Part shown: positions 15,611-64,000 of the stretch, in pieces
Layout of the letters: each line of letters begins with the position of its first letter
How positions within the stretch are numbered: position 1 is the first letter of the stretch
Position numbers and translations under genes: made by a program
Origin: Candidatus Culexmicrobium cathedralense
Lineage (GTDB): Archaea > Thermoproteota > Methanomethylicia > Culexarchaeales > Culexmicrobiaceae
Assembly (NCBI GenBank): GCA_025061115.1
Contig: JANZKC010000003.1
Coordinates: 160,001 to 224,000 of the forward strand
Reading direction: 5' to 3'
DNA: 64,000 nt
The notes under the pieces: model-generated
Told to the model about the DNA's origin: nothing
Database searches by the model: none
What the model saw: only the letters and a program-made list of their open reading frames with translations

Positions 15611-15675
15611 GGCTTAGGGTTCAGACTGGCCACGGTCATCATTTTTCAGGGATTTCATTCATCATCCCCTAAGCC
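15611..15675 (-). ncRNA. Box C/D 2'-O-methylation guide sRNA
   Basis: Minus strand: terminal stem GGCTTAGGG/CCCTAAGCC; C ATGATGA, guide ATGAAATCC, D' CTGA, C' ATGATGA, guide CCGTGGCCAGT, D CTGA; all four boxes perfect. Confidence 0.88.
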
Positions 15676-45492: not shown

Positions 45493-45523
45493 TTTAAAAA
45501 TGATTAAACTACATTCTTTTACT

Positions 45524-45889: not shown

Positions 45890-45960
45890 AATTCCACCAC
45901 AATCTAAATAATACATGGGAGAACAAAACTATTACCACTAAAGTTAGGTGACTGATAAAA

Positions 45961-46473: not shown

Positions 46474-46483
46474 TATTTTGAAA

Positions 46484-47059: not shown

Positions 47060-47840
47060 TTAAATTAATCCTCCTTCTCCATTCATCATAAGTTATTGAA
47101 ATGGCAATAGATTTATTCTTAGAAACTTGGCTTGAACTACCCTTAGGAATTATAAGGTAGTCTCTCCTTTTAGGATCGAACTCCAAGGCAATATATCCAT
47201 ATGTGGCGAGAAAGCTAATCATGTACGCCTTTAAGAGGGAGATTTCATAATCGATATTCAAAACGAATTTCCAATATGAAATAGGTTTACCATTGGAATA
47301 GCTTAGAAGCCTTCTCCAAAACTCTTCAATCATATCATTAAATGATCCCTGTAAAGCAAGCTTCTCCTTTATTAAATCCTCAATTGAGGTCAATTCCACT
47401 CCGATGATAGGTGGAGGAAGCCTTCCCCACCTATCTTTTAAGGGTGGAAGATTCAACCAATAATTAATAGCTGCTTCAATAGCTTTTGGAGATATAGTCC
47501 TTATTGATGCTATTGGGTGCCATGCAGAAACGATAATTGAAGCTAACTTCTTTAAACTTAGAGTTTTGATTTTCCATTCAATAATCATTGGATCAAAATA
47601 GAGCCTAGAAGATCTGCTTTTGACCCAATCTCGCTGCAATTCCACAATTTTAGAAATCCGGTCTATTGCATCTAAATCTAAGGCTAAATCTTCAATGGAC
47701 AATGAATCTTTCAAATAATTCCTTAATTTTGAAAGCAATTCTGGAACGTTAACTTGGAATGGGTCGGAGCCACGCTTTATGACGTAATCACAAGACTTAA
47801 CTATCCTCTTAACTGTGCTAATATTCCTCCGCTTACTCAT
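47040..47840 (-). CDS. Kleisin-like (ScpA-like) SMC partner
   Basis: DPFQVNV matches the ScpA DPWDIDI motif; C-terminal winged helix (ISFLATYGYIALE). Confidence 0.6.
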   Translation of the reverse strand: MSKRRNISTVKRIVKSCDYVIKRGSDPFQVNVPELLSKLRNYLKDSLSIEDLALDLDAIDRISKIVELQRDWVKSRSSRLYFDPMIIEWKIKTLSLKKLASIIVSAWHPIASIRTISPKAIEAAINYWLNLPPLKDRWGRLPPPIIGVELTSIEDLIKEKLALQGSFNDMIEEFWRRLLSYSNGKPISYWKFVLNIDYEISLLKAYMISFLATYGYIALEFDPKRRDYLIIPKGSSSQVSKNKSIAISITYDEWRRRINLNEQKEN

Positions 47841-49702: not shown

Positions 49703-49793
49703 TACCAGCTGAACCTCACATTAACATAAATATACTTTCTACCTAAAAATTAATTGTAACATGTAAATTTGATTATTCATGTAAGGTGAAATC

Positions 49794-50480
49794 TTGGTAG
49801 TAGCAGGTAAAATATTCAAACTTCGAGAAGCTATTCCGCTAAGGACAATAACTGCAAAATTATTGGATTACAAGGTGGAAGAGACGGTTGAGGAGCCTCC
49901 TCAAGAATTTACATTGCTCACTGAAATCGTAAACTTAGATCTAGTTGGAGATAGGATTAGAGGCTTATACACCAAGGATATTCTCATAAAAATATCTAGG
50001 AGAGGAGAAGAGGTTCCTATAGTTAAAACCCTTGAAGCTCCATTCACATTTACAGTTAGAGGAAATAATATTCTATTGACAATTATTGGAAAGAAGAATT
50101 GGGCTAACTACGTAGCAAACGAACTAAGCAAAATTATATTCATTAGTGTAGGCGGAATTGTTGAAGCAAGAATTTCACCGGAGACGCTGAGGCAATATCA
50201 TGAAGAAAATCCTGAAGGGACTAAAGTAATCTTCTTCGACAATGTTGACATTCCAAACATAGATAAACTTAGCTTGTATGGGCCAGATCTCAAAAACACA
50301 ATGCTATATAGCGAGTACTTATCCCATGGAAGCATCTGGTACATAGTTGCCACATCTAAGAAACATGGGTACGTAGTTGGAATAACTAGAAACTGCGTGA
50401 TAACCGTCTTCAGCAAAATTGATGAATACTCATTTTTCAGATTCGTTGAAGACGAAATATTTCCACTAATAGAAGTTTGA
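49794..50480 (+). CDS. Hypothetical protein divergent from the SMC-like operon
   Basis: Clean 228-aa ORF with GGTGA RBS; no motif recognised. Confidence 0.7.
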   Translation: MVVAGKIFKLREAIPLRTITAKLLDYKVEETVEEPPQEFTLLTEIVNLDLVGDRIRGLYTKDILIKISRRGEEVPIVKTLEAPFTFTVRGNNILLTIIGKKNWANYVANELSKIIFISVGGIVEARISPETLRQYHEENPEGTKVIFFDNVDIPNIDKLSLYGPDLKNTMLYSEYLSHGSIWYIVATSKKHGYVVGITRNCVITVFSKIDEYSFFRFVEDEIFPLIEV

Positions 50481-50565
50481 GCATTCTAGTTATTAACTAC
50501 CAAGAAAATTAGCGATAACATTTATCCCTGAAGGTTGAGTAAACCTATTTCTAGGTGCATAGACA

Positions 50566-51435
50566 TTGATCATTCTAGTCACGGGCCTTCTTCCATTTGA
50601 ATCTGGTAAAACTAGCTTTGTAAGCGAGCTAATTCAAACTTTAAGCGAAGTTGGAATTGAAGCAACTCCATTCAAGCCCATAGGAGGGCATAATGCTTGG
50701 TATCAATATGAAACCCTACTGAATAGTATTAAGCTTAAATGTCTCGTGGGAGAGGATGCCTATAAATTAGCAAAAATGGTTAATCGAATAGATGAAGTTG
50801 ACCTGCTATCCCCAATAGACATCTTACTGGCACCTCCAGACCCAATGAAACACCTCGAAAGCATGCATTACTTAATGGATGTTTATAGAAGCATGTTTAA
50901 ACAAGCCGTAATGCTAAGAACAACTCTATTTTTAAATGGTAAAGCATGCACGAAGCACTACTTAATAGAAGACAACTACGATAATGCTATTCAAACGCTA
51001 AAAAGCGATATAGATGCTCTCATTGAAGTTATTGGAGATGTAAATAATATTAACTATGATGACTTTATGAACAAAATTTTAGATCCAAGCCTCTACAATG
51101 AAGTTGATAAAATATTGCGGTACCTTATATCAAGGGATAAGAATGTCATCATAGAAAGCTTTAATGATGCAGCATTACCTATTCCAAAAGCAATCAACTC
51201 AGACTACGTAATTATAGTATCTCCAGGACGCGTATTTCTATATAGGGGTGAAGTATATGCAAGAGCTGCAAGTGTACTAGAAGAATATAGAAGTCCACTA
51301 TCAATCAAAACCCAAACAATAATGCCTTTATGCAGGCCACTTGCAATCATACCTTGGAAGCCAAAAAGCAAAGAAGCAATTAAGCCCTCTGAGGCAGCCA
51401 ACCAAGTTGCAAAGATAATATTAAGACCTAGATAA
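50566..51435 (+). CDS. Predicted P-loop ATPase/GTPase (dethiobiotin-synthase-like fold)
   Basis: GLLPFESGKTS, PFKPIGGHNAWYQY, IIESFNDAALP. Confidence 0.75.
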   Translation: MIILVTGLLPFESGKTSFVSELIQTLSEVGIEATPFKPIGGHNAWYQYETLLNSIKLKCLVGEDAYKLAKMVNRIDEVDLLSPIDILLAPPDPMKHLESMHYLMDVYRSMFKQAVMLRTTLFLNGKACTKHYLIEDNYDNAIQTLKSDIDALIEVIGDVNNINYDDFMNKILDPSLYNEVDKILRYLISRDKNVIIESFNDAALPIPKAINSDYVIIVSPGRVFLYRGEVYARAASVLEEYRSPLSIKTQTIMPLCRPLAIIPWKPKSKEAIKPSEAANQVAKIILRPR

Positions 51436-51529
51436 TCAACATTAATCACTTCATAAAGCCATATCTGTTGTGAAATTGCAACTAATATGCTTTAATAAGT
51501 ATGGATGCATACTGATTTTAGGTGCCACT

Positions 51530-53329
51530 ATGGCTGATTCATATAAAATTTTGAATGAGGAATTTTCAATTCAAGAGCTGATGGATTTTGTAAGCGATTT
51601 AAGCCGCTTTCATAGAATTCAAGGCTGCGATGAAATAGAGAAAGCTGGGAACTATATAAAATCCATTATTGAAAGCGAGGACGTACTTGATGTGGAGTTG
51701 AAGCACTATAGTTACGGTATTAGGCATGGTTCTTTTGGACCAGTTGTAGGCTGGTGGATTAAGGGCGGAGAGCTCAGATTGATCAAGCCCCGAGAAGAAC
51801 TTTTACACAGCTTTAAAGATTCAAGGACGCTTGTAGCAGCTCATAGCCCTGGCGGAATAGTTGAAGCTGAAGTTTTGCATATTGGAGACGGAGAAGACCC
51901 ATCAAGCTACAATAAAATCGATGTTGAAGGCAAAATCATTCTAGCTTGCGGCTATGCATACATTGTTTATAGGCAAGCCACACAGAACGGTGCAGCTGGA
52001 GTTTTAATTTATAGGAAAACAGGAATAGAAGATGCAGTTCCATATATGGGTTTATTTCTAACTCCGGAGGAAGCCAAGGAATCAAAAGCTCCAGCACTAG
52101 TAATATCCAAAAAAACAGCTAATAAACTTATTAAGCTAATTGAAAAGGGCGAAAAGCCAGTAGTAAGAATCACCGTAAATGCTGGTTATAGAGAGGAAGC
52201 TTGGATACCAGTAGTTACAGCTAAGATAGGGGAAAGTGAAAGCGAAATTCACCTATGTGCTCACTACTGTCACCCGGCTGGAACAGTCAATGATAATGTA
52301 AGTGGAGCTGCCTCTCTAATGGAATTAGCTCTAAGCTTAGCCAGGGCAATCAAGAATAAACGATTAGATAAGCCAGATAAACACTCAATAAGATTTCTAT
52401 GGGTCCCAGAATTCGCGGGGACATTAGCGTATATGATTAATGATAAACCACAAGTGGTTTTCAGCGTAAATCTAGATATGATTGGAGAAGAACAGCAGCT
52501 AGCAGGATCAACCATAAACTTCGTAAAGCCTCCTCCAAGGCTATTCCACCCATATGAAGCCGTAATTTATTACAACTTGAAGAACGCACTATCACTAAGT
52601 GAAAGCTTCTCATCCCCAAGAAAAGCTCTAGCCTACCGATTCGACATCGTACCATACGAATTTGGAAGCGACCATGATGTATATGTGCAATTCAATGTGC
52701 CATCAATAATGATTAATCAGTGGCCAGATAAGTTCTATCATAGCGATCAAGATACGATAGACAAATTCGACCCACAGCTAGCTAAAATAATCTCAACCTC
52801 AATTGGCTCCGCAATTTACATGATATCAAAAACAGGACATGAAAAGGAAATTCAAAAACTAGTTAAAAGCTACTTCTACAATTACATTGGACTTGAACTA
52901 TCTGCAACCCATAAGGAGCTATTCGAAGCAAGGTACAAATACATAATCAAATCAATTGGAAGCAAAGTATTAAGCGAAGTACCAGACAAGACAATCAAAA
53001 AGCTGATGGAAGCAATTGAAGAAGAATGCGAGAGCCAAAGTGATAAAGAGAAATACGTATATAAAGAGCCAATAGGCGTATTGTCCTCAAGGCTCATTTA
53101 TAGGCGAATGGGCTGGGAAGGCTATAAAGCACTAAAGGAAATTACTGAAAAGGAAAAATTCATGAGAACAGTCATCAGCAGCTTAATTCCACTATACATG
53201 CGGAATCCAATTAGCATAAGTAGACTCGCAAAAATGATAGAAGAGGATTACGGAGTTAAAGTGAAATTGGATTTACTGAGAAAAACAATTGAACTATTAA
53301 TCAAAGCTAAAATAATCGAGAAAAAATAA
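51530..53329 (+). CDS. M28-family aminopeptidase with PA domain (DUF4910-like)
   Basis: HRIQG, CAHYCHP, NDNVSG, VPEFAGT, NLDMIGE, GSDH, FYHSDQD. Confidence 0.85.
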   Translation: MADSYKILNEEFSIQELMDFVSDLSRFHRIQGCDEIEKAGNYIKSIIESEDVLDVELKHYSYGIRHGSFGPVVGWWIKGGELRLIKPREELLHSFKDSRTLVAAHSPGGIVEAEVLHIGDGEDPSSYNKIDVEGKIILACGYAYIVYRQATQNGAAGVLIYRKTGIEDAVPYMGLFLTPEEAKESKAPALVISKKTANKLIKLIEKGEKPVVRITVNAGYREEAWIPVVTAKIGESESEIHLCAHYCHPAGTVNDNVSGAASLMELALSLARAIKNKRLDKPDKHSIRFLWVPEFAGTLAYMINDKPQVVFSVNLDMIGEEQQLAGSTINFVKPPPRLFHPYEAVIYYNLKNALSLSESFSSPRKALAYRFDIVPYEFGSDHDVYVQFNVPSIMINQWPDKFYHSDQDTIDKFDPQLAKIISTSIGSAIYMISKTGHEKEIQKLVKSYFYNYIGLELSATHKELFEARYKYIIKSIGSKVLSEVPDKTIKKLMEAIEEECESQSDKEKYVYKEPIGVLSSRLIYRRMGWEGYKALKEITEKEKFMRTVISSLIPLYMRNPISISRLAKMIEEDYGVKVKLDLLRKTIELLIKAKIIEKK

Positions 53330-53371
53330 TCATAATTATATTATTTTTATTTATTATAAGAGGATTAGAAG

Positions 53372-53551
53372 CTAATTATGAAAGTGCTTTTGAGCTGCTT
53401 TAACGAATGCATGCGCCAATTCCTCTTTATAGCCAACTAATATAACCTGTTTAATTGTTGTGCCACCATCAATATGGCGCTTCAATTCAAATACCATGAC
53501 ATTAGCAGCATTATCTGGAGACACACCACCCACACCAGTACCTAATCCTGG
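53372..53551 (-). pseudogene. C-terminal half of a macrodomain (ADP-ribose-binding) protein, cut at the element junction
   Basis: PGLGTGVGGVSPDNAANVMVFELKRHIDGGTTIKQVILVGYKEELAHAFVKAAQKHFHN*; macrodomain PxxGTGxxG motif; in-frame TAA immediately upstream and no start codon. Confidence 0.8.
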
Positions 53552-53621
53552 TTAGAGTAAAATCGAATTGTACCTTAATTTTTAAATACTCGATTTTGAG
53601 TAAAATATTTGGGGAATTATA

Positions 53622-54830
53622 ATGCTTGAAATCCCCCTAAACCCATACTACCTCAAGTGGATTGAATCTGATGAAAGCCTTAGGAAGCTCGCAACTCGAG
53701 TCTACTTGAAAAGCGGAAGCACAAGCACAGTAAGAACATACCTCGACGGAGTAATAATGCTCAGCAAATTTCTGGAAATGAAGCCAAGTGAAATTTTAAA
53801 GGCAAAACTAGACTGGGAAGGCATATTGAATGAATTTATAGCCTACCTAATTTATGAGCGCAAAACTGCAAGGGGAACAGCGCTTAACTACTTCAGCGGA
53901 GTAAAAAAGTGGCTTGAAATCAACTTACCCAAAGAAGACTGGTACTCAATAGACTGGCGAAGAATAGACAAGCCAAGCAAATGGAAAGTAGAGCGAGACA
54001 GAATACCAACAAGAGAAGACTTAAGATTAATATTAAAAGCAGCAAATCCAGCCTGGAGAGCAATAATAACATTAGCAGTCTCAAGCGGCTTAAGACAAGG
54101 AACAATCATAAACCTCAAAATAGGAAACATAAAAATCTACGAAAACGGCAAAATCAAACCACTAACAGAATATTTGAAGGAAAATAAGCCGCTAAGCAGC
54201 GAAGCCCTGGGCATTATTTTGGTGGAACCTGAAATCGCAAAGGAAAGGCCAGAAAAATACCTAACATTCTGCACAGCCGAAGCCCTAAAACACATCCTAA
54301 TGTACCTTAAAATCAGGATGAAGCGAGGAGAAAAACTAAGTGAAGATACACTGTTATTCGTCAACAGAAGCAAGCGCAAAATAAATCCACACACATTCAA
54401 ATACAACTGGCTAGACATCCTCGCAAGAGTAGATAAAAACGTGAAGCACCGCAAATGGCACATCTACCGATTCCACACACTCAGAAAATACTTCTCAACA
54501 TGGTGCAAACTTTCAGGTGTAGATCCCTGGGTAGTAGAAGCCTGGATGGGCCACAAAGCAGGGATCCACCAAGTCTACTTCCTATCAGGCATAGAAGACC
54601 TAGAAAACCCAGTCCTAATAGCCAGGCTAGCCGAAGAATACAGAAAAGCAGTTCCAACACTCACCATATTCACAGAAGAAGAAAAAATAAGAGAGCTGGA
54701 AAAGCGGCTTGAAGAGGAAATAAAAGCAAGAGACGAAATCATAAAAATGCTCAAAGAAGAACTAAAGCAACTGGAAGCTAAAATAGCTGAAATTGAAAGA
54801 AAAGCCAGAAACTCGAGCTATATGTGGTAA
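53622..54830 (+). CDS. Tyrosine recombinase/integrase
   Basis: SSGLRQG (R), FHTLRKYF (HxxR), WMGH, QVYF (Y nucleophile); C-terminal coiled coil. Confidence 0.92.
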   Translation: MLEIPLNPYYLKWIESDESLRKLATRVYLKSGSTSTVRTYLDGVIMLSKFLEMKPSEILKAKLDWEGILNEFIAYLIYERKTARGTALNYFSGVKKWLEINLPKEDWYSIDWRRIDKPSKWKVERDRIPTREDLRLILKAANPAWRAIITLAVSSGLRQGTIINLKIGNIKIYENGKIKPLTEYLKENKPLSSEALGIILVEPEIAKERPEKYLTFCTAEALKHILMYLKIRMKRGEKLSEDTLLFVNRSKRKINPHTFKYNWLDILARVDKNVKHRKWHIYRFHTLRKYFSTWCKLSGVDPWVVEAWMGHKAGIHQVYFLSGIEDLENPVLIARLAEEYRKAVPTLTIFTEEEKIRELEKRLEEEIKARDEIIKMLKEELKQLEAKIAEIERKARNSSYMW

Positions 54831-55066
54831 CTAATTGTCCAAAACTATATAACTAATTATTCAGTGAATGCAGATAATGATGCAAATTACATGAATATAT
54901 TTTATAGCATTAATGCTTATGGTGGCTTTAAAAGCAATAGCGACATTGAATCTTAAAATACCTAACAATAAATTTTTTACCGCCGCCGTAATAGGGCGAT
55001 GACCTCATGTTTTTGTATAAAAAGTGAAGTAAAGAATTTATACGGTAAGTCACACAAAGTTGAATT

Positions 55067-55176
55067 GGGCCGGGAGGGTCTCCCGCTAAGGCAGGGGCGG
55101 GGGTCATCGGCTGTTAACCCTTTCATCACAGTTCAGTTAGCTCAGCATTCGTCCTTTGCTTCGGGCCCTCCGGCCC
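55067..55176 (-). ncRNA. Structured RNA: GC stem + bulge-helix-bulge motif enclosing a box C/D-like RNA
   Basis: GGGCCGGAGGG-CCCG-AAG-CAA-AGGACGA-ATGCTGAGCTAA-CTGA-ACT-GTGATGA-AAGGGTTAACAG-CCGA-...-CCTTAG-CGGG-AGA-CCCTCCCGGCCC; GC-rich island in an AT-rich spacer. Confidence 0.7.
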
Positions 55177-55207
55177 ATTACCATCATTAATTTAAAATTA
55201 ATGGGAA

Positions 55208-55220
55208 GGATATAAGTTTG
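55208..55220 (-). promoter_or_regulatory. BRE/TATA-like promoter for the structured RNA
   Basis: CAAACTTATATCC on the minus strand, about 35 nt upstream of the RNA 5' stem. Confidence 0.45.
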
Positions 55221-55545
55221 CATTGACTATTTTATCGCAAGGTGATGATGTGAAACTTCCATCAAAATTTACATTTCACATGAAAAATTTAAAGACTAAA
55301 AATTTAAATAGGCATCATCAGTATGGAGGTTGGATTCTCCTCCAACCTTATAAAAGGAACTACAATCCATTCAAGCCCAACCCAATTTGCCAGCACAACC
55401 CTTTTTGTTGCCCTAACTGTTGCAGGTGGATCTCTAAAGAGAATTAGTAAATTTTAGTACTCTAGGCATCAAAAAGTTTTACATTATTATATCCAAAGAA
55501 AAATGAGGAGTTTAACTGGTCTTCACATCAACTTGCTGGAGAGTT

Positions 55546-55818
55546 TTAGCATTCTTTCTGTTCCTTCTTCTTCAATTCAGCGCACTCCATTATTATTTTC
55601 TTGATGCTTGGAAGGTATGGGCAATGTTTAGTTAAAACATCAAAAAAGCACTCTCTAACGCTGATGTATATGTCCCACAAGATCTCTTTCCTTACCACTT
55701 CAAGAGGTATTTTGTATACTTCCGCCATTTTAAGCACTTCAGCGATGTAGTCTAGCATTTGAAGCTGCGCTTGAAGCCAAATTACATCAATAACCTTTTC
55801 CTTGAGAAACATAAACAT
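55546..55818 (-). CDS. Hypothetical protein
   Basis: 90-aa ORF with GGTGA RBS. Confidence 0.6.
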   Translation of the reverse strand: MFMFLKEKVIDVIWLQAQLQMLDYIAEVLKMAEVYKIPLEVVRKEILWDIYISVRECFFDVLTKHCPYLPSIKKIIMECAELKKKEQKEC

Positions 55819-55896
55819 TATAATATCACCATATTAGAATATGAGAATAATTATATTTAAATATTATCATACAGTAATATTGGAGTAGTGATAGTT

Positions 55897-56046
55897 ATGG
55901 CTAAGATAAAGACTTGCTTCACAATCGATGAGGATCTATACAAAAAGTTCCAAATCTTCGTGATAATGAAGCATGGAACTAAGAAGAAAATAAGCTTCGA
56001 AGTAGAAAACGCATTAAGAGAATACCTGGAAAAACATGAAAAATAA
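55897..56046 (+). CDS. Ribbon-helix-helix (CopG-like) DNA-binding protein
   Basis: Manual: MAKIKTCFTIDEDLYKKFQIFVIMKHGTKKKISFEVENALREYLEKHEK. Confidence 0.7.
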   Translation: MAKIKTCFTIDEDLYKKFQIFVIMKHGTKKKISFEVENALREYLEKHEK

Positions 56047-56065
56047 GTATAGTAATGGTGAAATC

Positions 56066-56554
56066 ATGAGGGAGGATGATCAAAAACAGTACTTTCCAAT
56101 CATTAAAGAATGGTTAGAGAAGAATAATTATAAAGCTATAATTACAGGAGATGCGCATCATCTAGTAATACCAATTTGGGATATATTCCCCATAAGATCC
56201 CATGTAATCCCAGACGTTATAGGATATAAGGAAAATCCATTTCCACACCTCACTATAGTAGAAGTGGAAACAAAATTGGATAAAATATTTGAGGCCATAG
56301 GAAAGTGCATGATTTGGAAGACAATAGCAAGCATAGTTTTTCTAGCCTATCCTGAAGGATCAATCAGAAAGTTACCTGCACTTGAAAAATTAGGCCTAGG
56401 ACTAATCAGTGTATCCGAGAATGAAGTAAGAGAAATAATAAGCATTCTACCTAAAGAATCATTAGATGCTCATAAAATCTTAGAGTTACATCCCCTTTAT
56501 CACAATAAAGAGCAAGAAATTATTAGACGGATCAAGAATATAATTGAATTATAG
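56066..56554 (+). CDS. PD-(D/E)xK-fold nuclease-like protein
   Basis: IKEWLEKNNY, IPDVIG, IVEVET, AIGKC, LGLGLISV; GGTGA RBS before ATG 56066. Confidence 0.55.
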   Translation: MREDDQKQYFPIIKEWLEKNNYKAIITGDAHHLVIPIWDIFPIRSHVIPDVIGYKENPFPHLTIVEVETKLDKIFEAIGKCMIWKTIASIVFLAYPEGSIRKLPALEKLGLGLISVSENEVREIISILPKESLDAHKILELHPLYHNKEQEIIRRIKNIIEL

Positions 56555-56574
56555 CTGAAATTTTATTTTGAGAT

Positions 56575-57282
56575 TTATTCTTCAATCATTAGTCTGTAGA
56601 ATGTTATGTATTTTTTCGGGGCTCTAGGGAATCTAATGTACATTTCGCGAAGCTCATTTTTTGCCAGGACTTCAGCTATCTTGGTTTTCTTTATCACTGG
56701 ATCATCCCAGTATTTTTTTACTATCGCTTTTAACTGCCTCTTTGCAGATTCTAACTCTTTCCTTGTCAATTCATTTAGACTTTTATCGTAAAGCCAGGCT
56801 GCATAGTAGTGAATTATGCTTGGCTTGTGGTAAAGCTTACCTTCCTTCTTTAGTCTAGCCATTGCGTAGCGAGTTCTAAGGCTTACTTGTAGCTTTTCAT
56901 AGCTGCTGAACCATGACTTGATGAAAAGCCATAATTCACGTAGAAGTGGATCTCCTATTTCAGGCTCTCTGGCAAAGTCGATTAAGACTTTGTAGTTTTC
57001 CATTATTGTTCTGAGCCTATTTAATGCTTCAATTGGACTTGAAGCTCTATAAAATCTCGTGAGATCGTACATAATGATCACATCAATATTGGATGTTTTA
57101 ACGTACTCAAGCAATTTTTTGAAAATTGGTCTCTCCAGGGGATCTACGCTGCCACTAATATTTTCCTCGAAAATCTCGACCACTTCATAACCTCTGGATT
57201 GCGCGTAATTTAGCACTACTTGAAGCTGACTCTTGGGAGTTTGATCTTCGGTACTAACTCTAGCATAGATGACTGCCTTCAA
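56575..57282 (-). CDS. Serine recombinase (resolvase family)
   Basis: YARVSTEDQ, ENISGS, ERP, YDLTRFYR. Confidence 0.9.
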   Translation of the reverse strand: MKAVIYARVSTEDQTPKSQLQVVLNYAQSRGYEVVEIFEENISGSVDPLERPIFKKLLEYVKTSNIDVIIMYDLTRFYRASSPIEALNRLRTIMENYKVLIDFAREPEIGDPLLRELWLFIKSWFSSYEKLQVSLRTRYAMARLKKEGKLYHKPSIIHYYAAWLYDKSLNELTRKELESAKRQLKAIVKKYWDDPVIKKTKIAEVLAKNELREMYIRFPRAPKKYITFYRLMIEE

Positions 57283-57425
57283 GCATGTCCACCATTTACA
57301 ATAGTACCCTATTAGAATAAAAATATTTCTAAAGTCTTACTAAAGAAATAAAATCATGATTTTACTTAAGGGGACCCTAAAGAAAGCTGGAACTTCGCTT
57401 TCGCTCCATATATTGGGGGATAGCT

Positions 57426-58331
57426 ATGAGCAAGCGCAGGGAAGATCGCTTAGGCATAGTCTTAACATTATTTTTGTTGATAATTATTTCAAGCGTTTTA
57501 GTTTACATTTCAGCTAAATTTGCACCTAAAATTGCTGAGTGGGTTAAAACGTGGACTTTCCCATTTGGTAATGGACAATTAGTCATCACGGGGGTATTTA
57601 GAATACTGAGCGCTGATGGAAAAGTAATTGCTCAAGGGCCTATTGAAAGTATAAGTCAAGTAGAGTATGAGGGGAAGCCGGCAGCCACTTACCAGGCCAC
57701 CTTTACGGTGCTCATGAATGCAGGAAACATAGACCCAAACACTGTTCAAATTTCAGTTAAATTCTTTATGCTGTCGACTAAAGGGTTGGAAAGGAACTTA
57801 CACATCGAAAGCAAGCAGATATCATTAAAATGGAATGAAGATGGAACTTACAGCGGGTCGATTAGCTTCACATATGAGTACATCGTTAAAGATGCAGTTG
57901 AAGACATATTAACTGTAGATGGCATAGCATTGGATCAAGACTACCTGCTAGGCTTAACCCATCTATACCAATTCACCGTCACAGCAATGACAACTGATGG
58001 AAAACAGCTGAAAGCCGAAAAGCAACTAAAACACGAAGTAGCTTACAACGTAATAGCATATAAGCCCTTCCTAGACTTAGAAGTACTCTACGACTTCAAA
58101 ATAACTCAAGAACCAACATTAGAAACGGAAACAACTACAACTACGTCTAGCAGTGGTGGAGGCGGTGGAGGATCTACTGGAACATTCGACTATAAAGCAA
58201 TTAGCTATATTAAACCCTTAAGTGAAGTCCAAATGCAACAAAAACTCAAAACAGCAGGTATATTAACATTAGTGATAATCGCACTGATCATAGCAGTAAC
58301 ACTTGTAATGAGGAGCTACTCCAGAAGATAA
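57426..58331 (+). CDS. Surface-exposed protein with N- and C-terminal TM helices and a Thr/Ser/Gly linker
   Basis: Hydrophobic ends, beta-rich core, TTTTTSSSGGGGGGS linker. Confidence 0.7.
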   Translation: MSKRREDRLGIVLTLFLLIIISSVLVYISAKFAPKIAEWVKTWTFPFGNGQLVITGVFRILSADGKVIAQGPIESISQVEYEGKPAATYQATFTVLMNAGNIDPNTVQISVKFFMLSTKGLERNLHIESKQISLKWNEDGTYSGSISFTYEYIVKDAVEDILTVDGIALDQDYLLGLTHLYQFTVTAMTTDGKQLKAEKQLKHEVAYNVIAYKPFLDLEVLYDFKITQEPTLETETTTTTSSSGGGGGGSTGTFDYKAISYIKPLSEVQMQQKLKTAGILTLVIIALIIAVTLVMRSYSRR

Positions 58332-58589
58332 AGCTAGGAAATATGCTAGACGTCTAGAAAACGACAGGCAATAAATCAATTAAAACTCAAACTAAGTTAT
58401 TCGTACAAAGTACAAATATACAATAGCCACTAAAATTAGAAGTCATAAAGCGTTATTTTCATAAAAATACCTATCATCATTTTAATAAAGGCTGCAGTGT
58501 GTGGTGCTTCAAGGGTGGAGGGGCATATCACGAATTAGCTTAAACCACTTATAATAGCTTAAGATCAACCAGTCAGACTGAGTCATATT

Positions 58590-58982
58590 TCACAGCGTGT
58601 TCAATTCAGAGTCTTTAAAAGCAAAAAAGCATTCTTCACAAAGAAGGTAGAATTTACCTTCTATTTCTCCATGACATAGATCACATAATAATGATTTTCT
58701 ACTTGAATTTGTAGCCAATTGAAATTGCCAGTCTGGAAGATAAACAAAGTTGAATCTGCTTACCTTCATAATCTTTATTTTGAGCTTCTTCCAACCTTTT
58801 AAATCTCTTACTTTAACTCCTTTTTCTAGGTCTCTTATTCTTTTAATGTAAGTGTTGTAGTTAAACTTGCTTTTCAATCTCCTTCTTAAGCGCAAGTATA
58901 AATCGTAAAGTAGGATAGGGCGGCCAACCATTTTTAATTCATCAATAATGTGCCCATATGTAAGCTCGGTCAAGCGGGTCAA
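58590..58982 (-). CDS. Putative DNA-binding protein with C-terminal Zn finger
   Basis: Basic wHTH-like N-terminus; CDLC...CEEC. Confidence 0.6.
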   Translation of the reverse strand: MTRLTELTYGHIIDELKMVGRPILLYDLYLRLRRRLKSKFNYNTYIKRIRDLEKGVKVRDLKGWKKLKIKIMKVSRFNFVYLPDWQFQLATNSSRKSLLCDLCHGEIEGKFYLLCEECFFAFKDSELNTL

Positions 58983-59166
58983 AATAATTCACCATAATAG
59001 AAAGTTAACTTTCTATTATTTAAGCTTATGGTTCAAAGGTCATCATCAAAAAAGGATAAAATTTCTTGAAATATGTTCATACAATGAAAATTTTCAAATT
59101 ATTACTTCAATATGCACTATTATTTTCAATCTGCTTATTTTTCGCTTCTATTTATGGGTGAGTAAG

Positions 59167-59358
59167 ATGCGTAATTTAGGCAATTTAGAGGTAATTCGAA
59201 TAAGTAAGGTGTCAAGCAACGATTCCGTCCCACTCATATATTTGCCGAAGAAAGCTGTCGAAAGGATTGGACTGAGAAAAGGCGACTACGTTGTTCTTGC
59301 AACTGATGGTAGGAGGCTGATCATCGAAAAGCTGGAATTAAACAGTCAAGGAGGCTGA
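59167..59358 (+). CDS. AbrB/MazE/SpoVT-like DNA-binding protein
   Basis: IYLPKKAVERIGLRKGDYVVLATDGRRLIIEK; start revised to ATG 59167. Confidence 0.78.
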   Translation: MRNLGNLEVIRISKVSSNDSVPLIYLPKKAVERIGLRKGDYVVLATDGRRLIIEKLELNSQGG

Positions 59359-59364
59359 AGTGCC

Positions 59365-59475
59365 ATGCGCATGAAAGATAGGAAGATAATCACCATCAAA
59401 ATTGACGATCTGAAGGCATTGAAAGAGCATGTTCGAAAGTGTTTGAAGCTTATTGAGAAGCTTGAGGTGATGTAA
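59365..59475 (+). CDS. Small hypothetical protein
   Basis: Manual: MRMKDRKIITIKIDDLKALKEHVRKCLKLIEKLEVM; GGAGG RBS, fills the operon gap exactly. Confidence 0.45.
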   Translation: MRMKDRKIITIKIDDLKALKEHVRKCLKLIEKLEVM

Positions 59476-59476
59476 A

Positions 59477-59851
59477 GTGAGTACTAGCTTAAATGTTGAA
59501 AAGCTCAAGTTAGAGGCCCAGATCCATGAACTTAGGCAAATAATTTCAATACTTAACAATAGGCTGCAAGCGCTTGAAAAAGCTTTGAAGTCAAGTGGAG
59601 TTGAAATTGTCACTTTGAAAGTTGAGCCGCCAATTGATGTTGAGAGCAGGCTTTTAAAATGGCTATGTCGCCGAATTTTAGATCCTCATAAAGAGAAGCA
59701 TGGAATCCAGTATAAACTACGATTTATCGCTGGGACAAACCTCGTTCAAGAGATCGTACTTTGGATTCCTCAAGGTAAGCAGGAACACCTCGACGAGATC
59801 AAGACCTGTTTGAAATGGGTTTGTAAAAAAGCTGCAAGTGCGGGGTGTTGA
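59477..59851 (+). CDS. Hypothetical protein with N-terminal coiled coil
   Basis: Heptad pattern LKLEAQIHELRQIISILNNRLQALEKAL; GAGGTGA RBS. Confidence 0.6.
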   Translation: MSTSLNVEKLKLEAQIHELRQIISILNNRLQALEKALKSSGVEIVTLKVEPPIDVESRLLKWLCRRILDPHKEKHGIQYKLRFIAGTNLVQEIVLWIPQGKQEHLDEIKTCLKWVCKKAASAGC

Positions 59852-59857
59852 AGAGGA

Positions 59858-62071
59858 ATGGGAAGGTGGAGTCCATTAAATAAGCCCAGCCCAGAAGAGG
59901 CCAGGCAATTCCTAGCTGAAAAAGGCTTCTTAATCGAAGTAAAATCTTTAAGTAATTCATTTAACGTATATAAGGTATTGCTGCACGGCCCAGATGGGAA
60001 TCTCCATGAACAAAAGTGTGAGCACTTATCAGGCTATTCTCCAACAGCTATCATTAACTTTCTTAAAAGCTATAATATTAATGAAAATGACCTCCCTGAT
60101 TTTTTAGCAGCCATATCCTCAATCATTGAAGCAATTTTACCTCAAAAGTTTAGGTTTGTGCTTGATGATGGCACAATAATTGAGCCTGAAGCCAGTGATG
60201 GCTTAGCAGTCAACCCCGCAATGTTGTTTGTAAGACACGAAAATTTCACGATTGTAGGTGAATTAACTTACCTTAAAAGTAAGGTGAAGATTCCTGATAA
60301 GCGAAGAGGTTTCAAGGAAATTATAGGTTATGAGCCTTTCCTAGTAATTGCGAGGTATGAAGGATCAGAAATTAAGAGGGATTTTAAGCCTTTGAGAAAG
60401 CTGGAATTTATTGATGTTGGAGACATCCCAGTTAGGTTAGATTGGCGCGGGAGGGCTTCAAGTCCTCTTAAAACCGTTATGAAGCTTGAAACAATTGGCG
60501 ATTTCATGAAAGGTGCTATTTCTCCCCACTTCAAGGAGTTATTTGATGAGGCTCTAAGTAACATAAAGAAATTCATTGACTTTTGGTGGGATCAGCGCCT
60601 ATATACTTTAACTGCAGTCTATTGTATGTCCACGTACTTTGCCGACTTCTTCACAGCATTTCCATTTCTCTACTTTTATGGTCCTCCAGGAACTGGAAAA
60701 ACTAGGGCTGGCAAGACAATTACTTTAATGAGTAGAAGAGGCTTCATAGTAACTGATCCTACTGAAGCATCCATTTACAGAACTGCTGAAGCATTCAAGC
60801 CTACATTCCTCTTCGATGAATCCATTATGCGCAAAGAGCTTTGGAAGCTGGTTAGAGCTGCATTTAAAGCTGGGGCTCAAATTCCGAGAGTAACTAAAGT
60901 TAGGGGTGAATACTTTGAATTATCATTTTTTGATCCATACTCACCGTACATTTTTGCAAGCACTGAAACTCCTGAAGAGTTAGGTGGAAGTGAAGCAGAC
61001 TTAACTAGAACTATCATAATAGTTATGAAATTTGGTCGAGATCCAAGTGGCAGAGATCCTGAACCTAACGACTTTACAAGATTCAGAGAGAAAATGTACT
61101 TGGCAAGACTCACTCGAGCCAATGAAATCATTGAAGCAATAGAGAAAGTTAAATGTTTAGCAAAAACACTTACAGGAAGAGAAAGAGAGGTTTGGCTTCC
61201 ACTTCTATCTTTAGCGAGAGTTATTGATGAAAAAGTTTTCAATGAAATACTTAACCTCGCTGCAGAGCTTTTTGAGGCAAAGAAGCTAGAGCTGTATAGA
61301 GATGAAAGGCTGATAATTGAAGCACTAGAGCGGTTAATGATGGATGAAGCTCAAAAGAGCTTAGGAGATGATCTTTTACTGCGTTTTTATGCGAAAGATC
61401 TCAATGCAATACTGAAGGACATTCTAGTTTTTGAGAGGCAAGAATTAACTGAAAAACAGTTTGAGCGATTTTGGAGCACCAGGAGAATAGGTAAAATACT
61501 TAGTAGAATGGGATTCAAGGGCCGCCTATATAAGGGAATAAAAAGATATACTTTAACTAGAGCAGAGCTCGAGGACCTAAAGCAAAAGTACTTTGCCTTG
61601 AGCTCCAGTGGAAATGAGGGTGGATTTGGTGGGTTTGGTGTATTTTCTGGAGAAAGGGGTACCTCTGAGAAAAACCCACCCCAGCATGAAGCAGAACCAT
61701 CAGAAATAATGATGGAGGGTGGATTTTCTGAAACCCTACCCCTTTTCCGAAAAAACCCACCAAATCCACCAAACCCACCCTTCATTCATGGACAAATATC
61801 AAAAAGCATTCCTCACCACATCCTCACACTAAAGAAGATTAAGCGCGGCGAGATCGATATTCCTGAAGAAGCGCTTCAAAGAGTTTACACTTATATTGAG
61901 AGGAATCTCCCACTTCAAAGAGACTTAATTAAGTTTATAGAGCTTAATGAGCTGCCAAAAGAGGCGCTTACAGTTCTCATCATGAAAGGCAGGGTAATTG
62001 AAAGAAGACTTCCAAGCGGTGAGGTGAGGCTTCTTCCATCCTACGTTTTGGGAGGATGGAGGTGTGGGTGA
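59858..62071 (+). CDS. Putative replication protein / helicase-like P-loop NTPase (DUF3631-like)
   Basis: FYGPPGTGKT Walker A, TFLFDE Walker B, DLTRTIII, GREREVWLPL, wHTH-like C-terminal region. Confidence 0.7.
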   Translation: MGRWSPLNKPSPEEARQFLAEKGFLIEVKSLSNSFNVYKVLLHGPDGNLHEQKCEHLSGYSPTAIINFLKSYNINENDLPDFLAAISSIIEAILPQKFRFVLDDGTIIEPEASDGLAVNPAMLFVRHENFTIVGELTYLKSKVKIPDKRRGFKEIIGYEPFLVIARYEGSEIKRDFKPLRKLEFIDVGDIPVRLDWRGRASSPLKTVMKLETIGDFMKGAISPHFKELFDEALSNIKKFIDFWWDQRLYTLTAVYCMSTYFADFFTAFPFLYFYGPPGTGKTRAGKTITLMSRRGFIVTDPTEASIYRTAEAFKPTFLFDESIMRKELWKLVRAAFKAGAQIPRVTKVRGEYFELSFFDPYSPYIFASTETPEELGGSEADLTRTIIIVMKFGRDPSGRDPEPNDFTRFREKMYLARLTRANEIIEAIEKVKCLAKTLTGREREVWLPLLSLARVIDEKVFNEILNLAAELFEAKKLELYRDERLIIEALERLMMDEAQKSLGDDLLLRFYAKDLNAILKDILVFERQELTEKQFERFWSTRRIGKILSRMGFKGRLYKGIKRYTLTRAELEDLKQKYFALSSSGNEGGFGGFGVFSGERGTSEKNPPQHEAEPSEIMMEGGFSETLPLFRKNPPNPPNPPFIHGQISKSIPHHILTLKKIKRGEIDIPEEALQRVYTYIERNLPLQRDLIKFIELNELPKEALTVLIMKGRVIERRLPSGEVRLLPSYVLGGWRCG
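61613..61786. repeat. Iteron-like palindromic array inside the replication gene (candidate origin)
   Basis: Eight 9-mers GGTG(G/T)RTTT: forward at 61619, 61628, 61637, 61718; reverse at 61672, 61753, 61762, 61771. Confidence 0.75.
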
Positions 62072-62208
62072 TGAGAACTAAAAGTGTCATAGTATTCTGC
62101 TGGCATGGTTACAGAAATCCTCACTTTTGCACTGAGTGCCTGTGGAGGGAGATTTGCAGCATTTCCAATCCTACATTGACCTCTAGTGAGGTGAAGGTTT
62201 GTGCGTGA
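62071..62208 (+). CDS. Small Cys/His-rich protein
   Basis: Manual: MRTKSVIVFCWHGYRNPHFCTECLWREICSISNPTLTSSEVKVCA; overlaps both neighbours. Confidence 0.45.
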   Translation: MRTKSVIVFCWHGYRNPHFCTECLWREICSISNPTLTSSEVKVCA

Positions 62209-62473
62209 GCTAATTAACAAGCAGGGAATACTGGAGGTTGATGGAGACATATATCAGTGCACTATTGTTGGAGCGCAATTTCGAGCTAAAAGGGAAAACA
62301 TCCTTTACATCGACGAGGAAGCGTACTGCAAGCTTCTCACAGGTTGTGAGAAGCCGAACATAGTCATTCTCCTAGTCAAGTTGAACTGCAAAAGTGCTGT
62401 CTGTGAGATCATGCAGAGTGGTAGTATTTGCATTAGAGAATCTAGAAGGAGAGATCAAAAATGCCGAGTGTGA
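62201..62473 (+). CDS. Hypothetical protein
   Basis: 90-aa ORF with GAGGTGA RBS. Confidence 0.5.
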   Translation: MRELINKQGILEVDGDIYQCTIVGAQFRAKRENILYIDEEAYCKLLTGCEKPNIVILLVKLNCKSAVCEIMQSGSICIRESRRRDQKCRV

Positions 62474-62601
62474 AAGTTAGACTTTCAACTCTCGTTAAGC
62501 TCAAGCAACTGAAAAAGAAGTTGAAGACTGCAAGCAGCCTAGATGACGTGATAGTCAGACTGATTCACTTTTACGAGGAGAATAGGGGAGTGAGGAGTTG
62601 A
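62461..62601 (+). CDS. Small RHH/antitoxin-like DNA-binding protein
   Basis: Manual: MPSVKVRLSTLVKLKQLKKKLKTASSLDDVIVRLIHFYEENRGVRS. Confidence 0.6.
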   Translation: MPSVKVRLSTLVKLKQLKKKLKTASSLDDVIVRLIHFYEENRGVRS

Positions 62602-63065
62602 TGCCTGTCGAGCTATTTACATCACCTGAAGAAGTTGCCGAAAGAATTGTTCAGCGAGTTTGGGATGAAGGATGGTTTCTAATAATACCAACGAACTTTA
62701 AAACCATGACGTTCCTCGAGTGGCTAGAGTACAAGTACTACACTCCAGGAACTAAAGAAAATGCATTCTATGAGATCTCGTTGCTTCCGATGATGGCCAT
62801 AATTAAGCCTAAGCCCCACTTCTACAACTTGTGGTTTAATGAACATGAGGAAGAGCTCATTCCCCTCATAAAGAAACACGGCTGCATAATAATTCTAAGA
62901 GACTTCCAACCAGCTGGGATGAACCGCGACTATAAGATAACTGGCAAGATCCTCTTAGTCTTCGAGGATAGGAATGACATGAGAAACTTCCTTGCAAAAA
63001 TGATGATCTTTCACTTCATTAAGTTAAAGTTAAGATCTCCCTTTCGAGGTGTAAGTCTTGACTGA
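62598..63065 (+). CDS. Hypothetical protein
   Basis: 155-aa ORF in the overlapping operon. Confidence 0.6.
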   Translation: MMPVELFTSPEEVAERIVQRVWDEGWFLIIPTNFKTMTFLEWLEYKYYTPGTKENAFYEISLLPMMAIIKPKPHFYNLWFNEHEEELIPLIKKHGCIIILRDFQPAGMNRDYKITGKILLVFEDRNDMRNFLAKMMIFHFIKLKLRSPFRGVSLD

Positions 63066-63708
63066 GAATATCGAGAAGATAAGAAAAGAGTTGGATTCAG
63101 TTTTAGTTGAGGCTGTTAGGCCTACAGCTCAGCTCGGAGTTGAAAACCTCATCGCCTGTGAGTTGGCTCGAGCAGTGTTCAGCAAGCCTCTTGAGAAGAT
63201 TCGGCACATCTTGGAAGCCTATCTTCTAATTTCAAATGAGAAGAGAAGGGAGTTGCTAGGTATATGTGATGATGAACATGAGGAGCTTATAAAAATATAT
63301 AAGCTGTGCCTAGACTTGCAAAGAACAATATTCATGGAAGATAGATACTGTGAAATGAGAACTGCAGCTATACCTTGGAGCTTCACTGCCAAGGAGATTT
63401 ATAAGTACTTGGACTGGATCGGTAATTTTGTACCATACCATTACCCATTAGTCTCATATTATAAAAAGTTAGATTATATGAAGAAATTCTACTATGCAAG
63501 TAAATTAGGAAATCTAACATGGATGACTGCAAGAGAAGTTCAAACACGCTTCATACAATATGCAATGCCTAAAGTGATTCGCATAATGCGCTTATTACTC
63601 GAGAAGATCGTCACGCCAGAAATCTGGTGGCAATCACTTCAAATCATAAGTGGAAAAGTTAAGGTAAAGGAGCGAGATCAACGTGCAGCATTACAGAGTG
63701 AAGCCTAG
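63058..63708 (+). CDS. Hypothetical protein
   Basis: 216-aa helical ORF directly upstream of the ATPase. Confidence 0.6.
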   Translation: MTENIEKIRKELDSVLVEAVRPTAQLGVENLIACELARAVFSKPLEKIRHILEAYLLISNEKRRELLGICDDEHEELIKIYKLCLDLQRTIFMEDRYCEMRTAAIPWSFTAKEIYKYLDWIGNFVPYHYPLVSYYKKLDYMKKFYYASKLGNLTWMTAREVQTRFIQYAMPKVIRIMRLLLEKIVTPEIWWQSLQIISGKVKVKERDQRAALQSEA

Positions 63709-64000
63709 CCTCATAGCAGTAAAGTGGCTCAGAGGAATAGAGCATATCAACTTTGGAAGCAAGCCAGTAGTCTTAATGGCTTTAGGCGTTAGAGGAGCAG
63801 GTAAAAGCGCATTCCTAGAAGCAGTAGCAGAGCATTTTTTGGCAAGCGGTCACAGTGTCCTAGACCTGTTTGGAGCCAGGAGCGGAGAAGGCTTAGCATG
63901 GCTTAGGTCACCATGGATACAAGAATTAGACCTCCCAGTACTGCTGATTAAAGGCAGAAATATAGATGTAACTTGCAGCTGGAACGTGAAAAGCTGGGAT
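63698..64000 (+). CDS. P-loop ATPase, N-terminal part (packaging/FtsK-HerA-like candidate), runs off window
   Basis: Manual: MKPSLIAVKWLRG...LMALGVRGAGKSAFLEAVAE...VLDLFGARSGEGLAWLRSPW. Confidence 0.65.
   Translation, partial: MKPSLIAVKWLRGIEHINFGSKPVVLMALGVRGAGKSAFLEAVAEHFLASGHSVLDLFGARSGEGLAWLRSPWIQELDLPVLLIKGRNIDVTCSWNVKSWD

Follow-up and report, generated by a model that had tools for sequence, protein, structure and literature searches.

Which kind of gene lies on the minus strand at positions 55067-55220 of the window analysed here, a stretch of 64,000 nucleotides (nt) from the genome of Candidatus Culexmicrobium cathedralense (assembly GCA_025061115.1, referred to as G000; the window is G000 C3:160001-224000)? 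Coordinates are window positions unless a contig (C) is named. An initial annotation, based on the letters alone, had described an 11-bp GC stem, a bulge-helix-bulge (BHB) geometry and boxes and guides in the order of a box C/D RNA. Every one of these elements is present on the minus strand at the positions listed in Table 1. Judged from the comparison with its homologues, the locus is a real, conserved RNA gene and a variant of two known themes, the guides found in tRNA-Trp introns and the RNAs circularised through BHB motifs. We lean towards the view that it is a stand-alone, intron-only gene, in which a minimal stem resembling a tRNA precursor carries a BHB intron that acts as a functional tRNA-directed C/D guide.

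Proposed guide RNA and its predicted tRNA targets

Homologues were sought by BLAST and with a covariance model, R1. The model matched four of 62 genomes of the class, namely G000 and three of the four other members of its family. No homologue was found with R1 in the remaining family member, G004, or in the 57 class genomes outside the family. Single copies are present in G001, which belongs to the same genus as G000, and in G002 and G003, which belong to the same family. Including a truncated paralogue in G000 (copy 2), the set comprises four intact variants and one shortened one. A pattern scan of 185,579 species genomes yielded 46 stretches, which were searched with R1 together with one stretch from IMG/VR; the two accepted out of these 47 are the RNAs of G001 and G003. 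A stricter pattern applied to a metagenome collection gave nine stretches, and the four that R1 accepted are all known variants. A viral origin was considered and dropped; the single IMG/VR stretch from the pattern scan was rejected by R1.

The RNA is laid out according to the archaeal box C/D standard, with a C box (7 nt), a guide (12 nt), a D′ box (4 nt), a spacer (3 nt), a C′ box (7 nt), a second guide (12 nt) and a D box (4 nt). The internal kink-loop (K-loop) is complete, with both boxes and a short spacer. Its D′ box reads CTGA in every homologue, while the C′ box occurs as GUGAUGA, AUGAUGA or AUGAUUGA (in DNA form xTGATGA or ATGATTGA). The Infernal/Rfam search suggested along with the initial annotation had a mixed outcome. 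Archaeal C/D families dominate the matches listed in E-value mode (12 of 16, stacked on 55102-55160 of the minus strand), and all of them stay below the gathering score, at which Rfam gave no match on the locus. A fluoride-riboswitch-like match at 55302-55349 (16.8 bits against a required 34) was discarded as noise.

The proposal that both guides are complementary to the tRNA-Asn of the host was borne out. When 47 tRNAs of G000 called by ARAGORN were ranked, tRNA-Asn(GUU) (C1:772408-772484) came first. Guide 1 forms 11 contiguous pairs with nt 8-17a (U8 to U17a) and guide 2 forms ten with nt 32-41 (C32 to C41), or two more if the first two letters of the D box are counted. The runner-up reaches 10 + 7 pairs. 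Guide 1 also fits the D arm shared by several tRNAs of G000 (9-10 pairs); guide 2 is specific, with eight pairs for the next-best tRNA. The tRNA-Asn gene is the only site in the genome at which both guide matches stand side by side. At the positions given by the N+5 rule, the two guides form Watson-Crick pairs, G-C11 and A-U36, and the earlier calculation of these two sites is right for this copy. One target segment had been guessed as CGGCUG, where the host tRNA-Asn reads GGGCUG. Lone matches of 10-11 nt to either guide elsewhere in G000 lie in coding regions and were put down to chance. Ribosomal RNA was likewise discarded as a target, as the best runs in the rRNA operon (C4:19601-25600) need several G-U pairs and are not comparable.

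The pairing is retained in the other lineages. In G001, the comparison was made by hand with tRNA-Asn only, which is identical to that of G000; guide 1 forms 11 pairs (two of them G-U) and guide 2 ten. For G003, 37 tRNAs were retrieved and tRNA-Asn again ranked first, with 11 pairs for guide 1 and ten, including one G-U, for guide 2. Guide 1 of G003 has a U opposite A16, which replaces C16 in the tRNA-Asn of that genome and constitutes a compensating change. The site of guide 2 on the tRNA-Asn of G003 is the region of the variable loop and T stem; for this guide alone, tRNA-Tyr ties. A match of the same guide to tRNA-Asp was pursued and abandoned: there is no tRNA-Asp among the 37 retrieved tRNAs, and the tRNA-Asp loop of G000 does not match. 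In G002, where only orthologous tRNAs were compared, the target is tRNA-Ser(GCU). Guide 1 matches 11 nt of its D loop (C12 to U20a) and guide 2 matches ten nt, UUGCUAAGCC. This second target spans the spliced anticodon loop and exists only after removal of the intron, which is why a direct genomic search (at most one mismatch, 24 places) found no tRNA among the ten places examined.

Across the four lineages, both guides thus appear to converge on one tRNA and to change together when the target changes, which we regard as the strongest evidence for a function. As far as these alignments tell, the conserved feature is the targeted tRNA and not the modification site. The tRNA-Asn genes of G000, G001 and G004 are free of introns and mutually identical, and that of G002 is intron-free and 92% identical. 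The tRNA-Asn of G003 (L117, C13:594-687) contains about 17 extra nt after the anticodon stem, at a non-canonical intron position.

Table 1 Features of the RNA gene, in order of transcription, and of the integrated element that carries it
Feature	Position	Strand	Remarks
Upstream A/T-rich TATA-like boxes, putative archaeal promoter	55190..55216	-	CTTATAT (55216-55210) and TTTTAAAT (55197-55190); read from sequence
Outer (exon) stem, 5′ strand, GGGCCGGAGGG	55166..55176	-	7 bp acceptor-like and 4 bp anticodon-stem-like
Central BHB helix, 5′ strand, CCCG	55162..55165	-	in the place of anticodon-loop nt 32-35
5′ bulge, AAG	55159..55161	-	cut predicted after the second nt, between 55160 and 55159
Lead between AAG bulge and C box, 6 nt		-	read from sequence
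Degenerate C box, AGGACGA	55149..55155	-	both GA dinucleotides intact; positions U2 and U5 altered
Guide 1 (D′ guide), 12 nt, ATGCTGAGCTAA	55137..55148	-	
K-loop region	55123..55136	-	D′ box CTGA (55136-33), 3-nt spacer ACT, C′ box GTGATGA (55129-23)
Guide 2 (D guide), 12 nt, AAGGGTTAACAG	55111..55122	-	
Degenerate D box, CCGA	55107..55110	-	
C-rich linker, 21 nt, from D box to 3′ half of the BHB	55086..55106	-	length differs among homologues
Central helix, 3′ strand, CGGG, and 3′ bulge, AGA	55085-55082 and 55081-55079	-	cut predicted between 55080 and 55079
Outer stem, 3′ strand, CCCTCCCGGCCC	55067..55078	-	partner of GGGCCGGAGGG
Unpaired A, discriminator position	55066	-	directly after CCCTCCCGGCCC
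Integrated element, part within the window	53552..64000		whole element C3:213552-224671, 11,120 bp, ending 671 bp beyond the window
Left 10-bp direct repeat, CTAATCCTGG	53542..53551	+	right copy at G000 C3:224662-224671, 662-671 bp past the window end
Tyrosine recombinase (integrase), 402 aa	53622..54830	+	Pfam Phage_integrase 9.8e-13; PHROG integrase 7.9e-21
Serine recombinase	56575-57282	-	open reading frame of the element

Conservation of the bulge-helix-bulge frame

The BHB motifs of ten intron-containing pre-tRNAs of the host (Gln, two Glu, Ser-GCU, Leu-GAG, Gly-GCC as called by ARAGORN, Ser-UGA, Leu-UAA, Tyr and Trp) were read out with a small scanner. In all ten, the helix strand is formed by nt 32-35, the 5′ bulge by nt 36, nt 37 and the first intron nucleotide, and the 3′ bulge ends with nt 38. 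The RNA gene is in the identical register (GGAGGG-CCCG-AAG to CGGG-AGA-CCCTCC), with both 3-nt bulges located 3′ of the respective helix strand and with a predicted excised piece of 80 nt (55159..55080). Its outer stem consists of 7 bp, one bulged C and 4 bp. Joining of the exons would leave this stem with a 7-nt loop, CCCGAA/A, where the slash marks the canonical 37/38 cut. In G001 the joined loop would read CUCGAA/A, with a U at position 33 and the regular shape of an anticodon loop. The gene looks like an acceptor stem set on an anticodon arm with an intron at the canonical position. It is not a tRNA gene, as the D and T arms of a cloverleaf are missing and only the acceptor-like stem and the anticodon-arm-like BHB are found. 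ARAGORN called no tRNA gene in the window, and Rfam gave no tRNA match at the locus.

By itself, the geometry is not informative: the 1.98 Mb of G000 contain 2722 sites at which two 3-nt bulges accompany a 4-bp helix next to an outer helix of 6 bp, so that the weight rests on conservation. All four intact variants keep the outer stem, the 4-bp helix and the two 3-nt bulges on opposite strands, a motif that is lost in copy 2. The 5′ strands of the central helix are CCCG, CUCG, CCCG and UCCG in G000 to G003, each facing CGGG. The outer helix measures 10-13 bp with 96% of its cells paired, and two of its pairs are compensatory (G-C to A-U). Over the five distinct rows of the alignment, 94.6% of the cells are paired; sliding the 3′ partners by 1-3 columns reduces this to 23-58%. 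Covariation in homologues had been named as a check; these two compensatory pairs were its outcome, with thin statistics. The minus strand is identified as the transcribed one by G-U pairs in G001, G002 and G003, which would turn into A-C mismatches if the opposite strand were read. Taken together, the conservation of this architecture in four diverged homologues goes, on the alignment, beyond chance, and the same holds for the match between the guides and tRNA-Asn.

Folding of single sequences with ViennaRNA placed the outer stem in the minimum free energy (MFE) structure, with a z-score of only -2.25. Constraining the four homologues to the BHB costs 0-5.4 kcal/mol over the MFE at 37 °C, and at 75 °C the difference amounts to 0.6-1.6 kcal/mol. 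For G001 at 37 °C, the constrained fold and the MFE structure coincide; in G000, the outer stem, the central helix and the 3′ bulge all form unforced in the MFE structure at 75 °C. Upstream of the gene, the CTTATAT box is also present, with its spacing, in copy 2 and in G001, while G002 and G003 have different A/T boxes in this region. The TATA-like boxes may form the promoter of the RNA gene.

Copy 2 (G000 C3:111028-111290) lies 104 kb away in inverted orientation; the 290 bp that align, putative promoter and trailer among them, share 84% identity. It has lost 28 nt between two CCCG repeats, and with them the 3′ half of the BHB and part of the linker. The putative promoter, the boxes and the guides are retained, and the D box is the canonical CTGA. 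When G000 was scanned with relaxed box patterns for further C/D genes embedded in a BHB, five candidates were obtained, which turned out to be the two copies and three ordinary small RNAs (sRNAs). An ordinary box C/D sRNA candidate lies in the window at 15621-15668 of the minus strand. It has the near-canonical boxes GGGATGA, CTGA, ATGATGA and CTGA and a 7-bp terminal stem (GGCTTAG/CTAAGCC) without a BHB.

Introns are carried by many tRNA genes of G000. For tRNA-Phe (C2:258860-259571) and tRNA-Ser (C4:125827-127817), ARAGORN reports introns of 637 and 1895 nt, which are either artefacts or very long introns. In the tRNA-Trp gene (C1:795707-795836), which ARAGORN missed, the intron is about 55 nt long and includes a GAUGAUG that resembles a C box, together with a segment complementary to the anticodon region of the same gene. 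Apart from the run GCGGGAG close to the 3′ splice site, this intron and the RNA gene have little in common. The acceptor stem of this tRNA-Trp has a 5′ strand that is interrupted in the DNA, which points to a split gene or to an additional, non-canonical intron.

Genomic settings and the integrative element

The genome of G000 comprises 1.98 Mb in 25 contigs and has a G + C content of 41%. The contig in question is chromosomal, as it carries genes for an Obg-like GTPase, a thiamine pyrophosphate (TPP) enzyme and the like. The location of this copy on a mobile element, as stated in the initial annotation, was confirmed: the element of 11,120 bp has an integrase gene and 10-bp direct repeats, and its site is empty in another sample. 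The RNA gene lies 1.5 kb inside the element, which further contains the serine recombinase gene, an AbrB/MazE-like open reading frame (ORF) and several ORFs without a family. Most ORFs of the element, one of 737 aa with a faint P-loop signal among them, lack a family match. Imperfect inverted repeats are found just inside both 10-bp repeats.

Sequencing runs were searched for the locus, which returned only three DNA metagenome runs, from hydrothermal vent and sediment, and no RNA run. The contigs of these three runs were aligned to window positions 45000-64000. In one of them, X3, a depth of about 60-78 extends to 53551 and gives way to about 5-14 past this point, with a drop from about 72 to about 9; the element is absent from the dominant strain of X3. 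One X3 contig crosses 53551 into 20 letters identical to G000 C3:224672-224691 and thereby represents the empty site; these 20 letters past the joint are below the 31 required by the alignment tool. At this joint the flanks restore one minus-strand reading frame, that of a Macro-domain gene into which the element has inserted in frame; the right fragment accounts for positions 1-102 of the 118 in the Pfam Macro profile.

The RNA also occurs outside the element, as its homologues occupy integrase-free chromosomal settings in three related genomes. The alternative raised earlier, a conserved chromosomal sRNA also present in element-free relatives, is correct in part, given these three genomes and an apparently intact copy in an element-free strain of X3. 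Copy 2 is located between the genes for a Pab87-like peptidase and a TPP enzyme. In G001, the copy shares a stretch of about 2.2 kb, absent from G000, with an MgtC gene; this stretch is located between tRNA-Gln(CUG) and a block of major facilitator superfamily (MFS) and ThiC genes. The G002 copy adjoins a gene of the phospholipase D (PLD)-like type at a contig end, and the G003 copy follows a proteasome-alpha/SBDS operon exactly where the synteny with four relatives ends. An X3 contig with a depth of 60.5 covers 55010-55290 and carries five of the substitutions that mark copy 2. Its only deletions are four small ones of 1, 1, 2 and 1 nt, and it lacks the 28-nt gap of copy 2. The element-free strain of X3 thus probably possesses a BHB-intact copy at the locus of copy 2, and the 28-nt loss in G000 would then be recent.

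A link of the RNA to the integrase family was considered and rejected. Homologues of the integrase were found in eight of the 62 class genomes. No R1 match was obtained at ten integrase loci scanned with filters off, and in G003 an integrase of 68% identity and the RNA are on separate contigs. In IMG/VR, the query used returned no relative of the integrase. The RNA gene itself was considered as the attachment (att) site and discarded, as the contig contains no direct repeat of at least 13 nt of it except the inverted copy 2. A codon-usage motive was also rejected: AAT and AAC make up 3.28% of the codons in 11 ORFs of the element and 3.41% in long ORFs of the host. An upstream ORF of 90 aa (55546-55818) gave a SpoU_sub_bind match with E = 0.12, which was judged to be noise; by eye its sequence looks helical.

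Two repeats were observed next to RNA genes of the family. The stretch 55205-55404, some 200 bp of sequence lying upstream of the RNA gene in the window, recurs at G000 C1:458511-458710 with 78% identity and without an RNA gene after it; an A/T-rich part of it is flanked by the arms of an 8-bp inverted repeat (TGATGATG/CATCATCA). A short stretch just upstream of the RNA gene of G003 (L110 9362-9520) recurs at G000 C1:161062-161194 and C4:3560-3717 with 74-78% identity. Rfam gave no match for this second repeat, which may encode a small helical protein.

Competing explanations and relation to known systems

In the pathway we propose, the gene would be transcribed from its own promoter and the host's two-subunit splicing endonuclease would cut within both bulges, at 55160/55159 and at 55080/55079. 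Ligation by RtcB would then turn the 80-nt piece into a circular RNA and the exons into a dispensable hairpin whose loop has 7 nt. The genome of G000 encodes two EndA (splicing endonuclease) paralogues (ORFs of 188 and 180 aa), fibrillarin and RtcB. The endonuclease genes are located at C1:462959-463216 and C2:433801-434061. As a circle or in linear form, the guide RNA would assemble with L7Ae, Nop5 and fibrillarin into a box C/D ribonucleoprotein (RNP). On tRNA-Asn(GUU), one guide would bind the D arm (nt 8-17a) and the other the anticodon loop and stem (nt 32-41), and the N+5 rule predicts 2′-O-methylation at C11 and U36. The gene family would move between variable regions of the genomes, with the present copy as cargo of the 11-kb integrative element.

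Several observations weigh against this reading. The inner helix on the intron side is conserved for one C-G pair only, with longer pairing in G000 alone, so that the BHB appears to be of the relaxed type rather than a strict hBHBh′. Two-subunit endonucleases accept this relaxed form. At 37 °C, the MFE structure lacks the central helix in three of the four homologues. Both compensatory pairs stem from a single lineage, G003, and 42 of 500 shuffles reach the observed covariation score (five distinct rows), i.e. the covariation is weak. Copy 2 persists without the 3′ half of the BHB, which is therefore dispensable for the persistence of the gene. The best Rfam match, to sR1, scores 22 bits (gathering score 45, E = 0.003); as the C/D families of Rfam are lineage-specific, failing the threshold mainly shows that the RNA belongs to no described family. 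The terminal boxes are degenerate: the C boxes of G000 to G003 read AGGACGA, AUGAAGA, AUGAUUG and AUAAAGA, and the D boxes are CCGA (G000), CUGG (G001), CUGA (G002 and copy 2) and CAGA (G003). In the aligned register, G001 (CUGG) and G003 (AUAAAGA) each miss one G/A of the kink-turn (K-turn) core. In the circular form, the linker and the ligated ends could provide a stem that closes this K-turn. The N+5 position of the D′ guide is C11, U12, C16 and C11 in G000 to G003, and that of the D guide is nt 36 in G000, G001 and G002 and C48 in G003. To our knowledge, a 2′-O-methyl group at tRNA nt 36 is not a known modification. In G002, both guides differ from those of G000 and the comparison was limited to orthologous tRNAs.

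The main rival, which we hold to be possible if rather unlikely, is an ordinary linear box C/D sRNA with a long terminal stem, whose BHB is fortuitous or a relic, whose ends are trimmed and which serves the routine methylation of tRNA-Asn. Its best argument is copy 2, which has lost the 3′ half of the BHB and keeps everything else. The chance frequency of the bare geometry and the poor conservation of the inner helix fit as well, and archaeal sRNAs directed at tRNAs are common, amounting to about one third of the Pyrobaculum sRNAs in the available part of Lui 2018 (PMC6009581). However, the bulge lengths, the 4-bp helix and the register are kept in all four intact variants despite a sequence divergence of 20-30%. 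The register coincides with that of the host pre-tRNAs down to the 7-nt loop after joining, and the retained linker of 20-25 nt serves only to connect to the 3′ half of the BHB. In addition, a housekeeping guide would be expected to be syntenic and to have a fixed target site, neither of which holds here. Clearly less probable is an antisense RNA that binds the tRNA without methylating it, serving as a sponge or a chaperone of folding or protecting the anticodon loop as a shield or decoy, with boxes that only bind L7Ae or have a structural role. It would account for the pairing of both segments with one tRNA being conserved while the N+5 nucleotide is not, for the degenerate boxes of the terminal K-turn and for guide 2 spanning the whole anticodon loop in three lineages. 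Yet at the heat to be expected for a hydrothermal-vent organism, duplexes of 10-11 bp are weak unless held by an RNP, the exact 12-nt spacing of the boxes and the conserved D′/C′ K-loop are what a methylation RNP needs, and the N+5 nucleotides pair by Watson-Crick rules in G000.

A functionless remnant, either of a decayed tRNA gene or of an att site of the integrative element, was suggested by the acceptor-like ends with the discriminator-like A, by the adjoining integrase gene and by the truncated second copy. We consider it highly improbable. ARAGORN and Rfam detect no tRNA, and the tRNA-like stretches are antisense, non-contiguous, permuted and placed exactly between the boxes. The real att repeat is a different 10-mer inside the Macro-domain gene, 1.5 kb away, and the element is not bordered by direct repeats of the RNA gene. 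Moreover, the gene and its putative promoter are conserved in four genomes.

As an intron-borne guide, the RNA proposed here is closest to the introns of pre-tRNA-Trp. In archaea, these introns are C/D guides (PMC7994747), and the accounts for Haloferax and Pyrococcus in the accessible sections of PMC7994747 and PMC7714728 have in common with the present gene that a C/D guide resides in a BHB intron at position 37/38. Release by the endonuclease, circularisation and methylation of a tRNA around the anticodon are described there and are proposed alike for the present RNA. In contrast to pre-tRNA-Trp, the exons consist here of a stem and a 7-nt loop without a tRNA, the gene has its own putative promoter, the target is another tRNA in trans (Asn or Ser-GCU) and the terminal boxes are degenerate. 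Methylation is predicted here at 11 and 36, whereas the sites in tRNA-Trp are 34 and 39.

Other BHB substrates outside tRNAs comprise rRNA, cbf5 mRNA and one 5′ untranslated region, as far as listed in the sections consulted of PMC7714728. The permuted signal recognition particle (SRP) RNA of Thermoproteus is matured by BHB cleavage and circularisation (Plagens 2015, PMC4731332; cited in PMC7994747). According to the excerpts, that RNA needs circularisation to restore its order, whereas the guide RNA has its boxes in the normal order. How C/D sRNAs become circular is described as unclear in the accessible text of PMC7994747, where their ends are said to be usually without BHB motifs, and for circular omega-RNAs the available part of PMC12558985 reports that no BHB was found. 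Dual guides on one tRNA are rare and occur in a few Pyrobaculum sRNA families, and sRNA elements similar to miniature inverted-repeat transposable elements (MITEs) are known as well (Lui 2018, PMC6009581). The Pyrobaculum sRNAs sR46, sR61, sR123 and sR126 and the MITE-like elements resemble the present RNA in the dual guides to one tRNA, in the migration of targets between relatives and in their location in unstable genome regions. Unlike for the gene described here, no BHB or exon stem is described in the available part of that paper. In the literature searched, no stand-alone BHB-flanked C/D sRNA gene was found to be described; supplementary tables (e.g. of Lui 2018 and Danan 2012) might list such genes. 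The scaffold of stem and BHB also resembles engineered expression cassettes for circular RNAs, as presented in the accessible part of a 2026 preprint, and may be a natural minimal substrate for such cassettes.

We give little credence to the further idea that the gene is a selfish or accessory weapon or shield moving among genomic islands and mobile elements, which would employ the splicing and methylation machinery of the host to place a 2′-O-methyl group on nt 36 of one chosen tRNA, here Asn and in a relative Ser-GCU. The ribosome reads the 2′-OH of anticodon nt 36 during decoding, and 2′-O-methylation blocks ribonucleases that use the 2′-OH. Given these roles in decoding and in attack by ribonucleases, such a guide could disable or retune its target tRNA or protect it from an anticodon nuclease. 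If this were true, the rapid retargeting between lineages would be a trace of conflict.

In the non-coding host genes of eukaryotic small nucleolar RNAs (snoRNAs), the intron constitutes the product, with exons that can be discarded; these introns are spliceosomal and the RNAs are released by exonucleases. The gene studied here would be alike in having the intron as its product and unlike in that neither a BHB nor the tRNA splicing endonuclease takes part there. If the BHB is indeed used, this would be an archaeal gene whose sole product is its intron, a prokaryotic counterpart of the snoRNA host genes, and the circularisation of a box C/D sRNA would be hard-wired through the tRNA splicing pathway. 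The joint switch of both guides between tRNA-Asn and tRNA-Ser(GCU) from one lineage to another makes the family a compact natural experiment. With one copy on a defined 11-kb element, RNA-guided tRNA modification by mobile DNA becomes directly testable.

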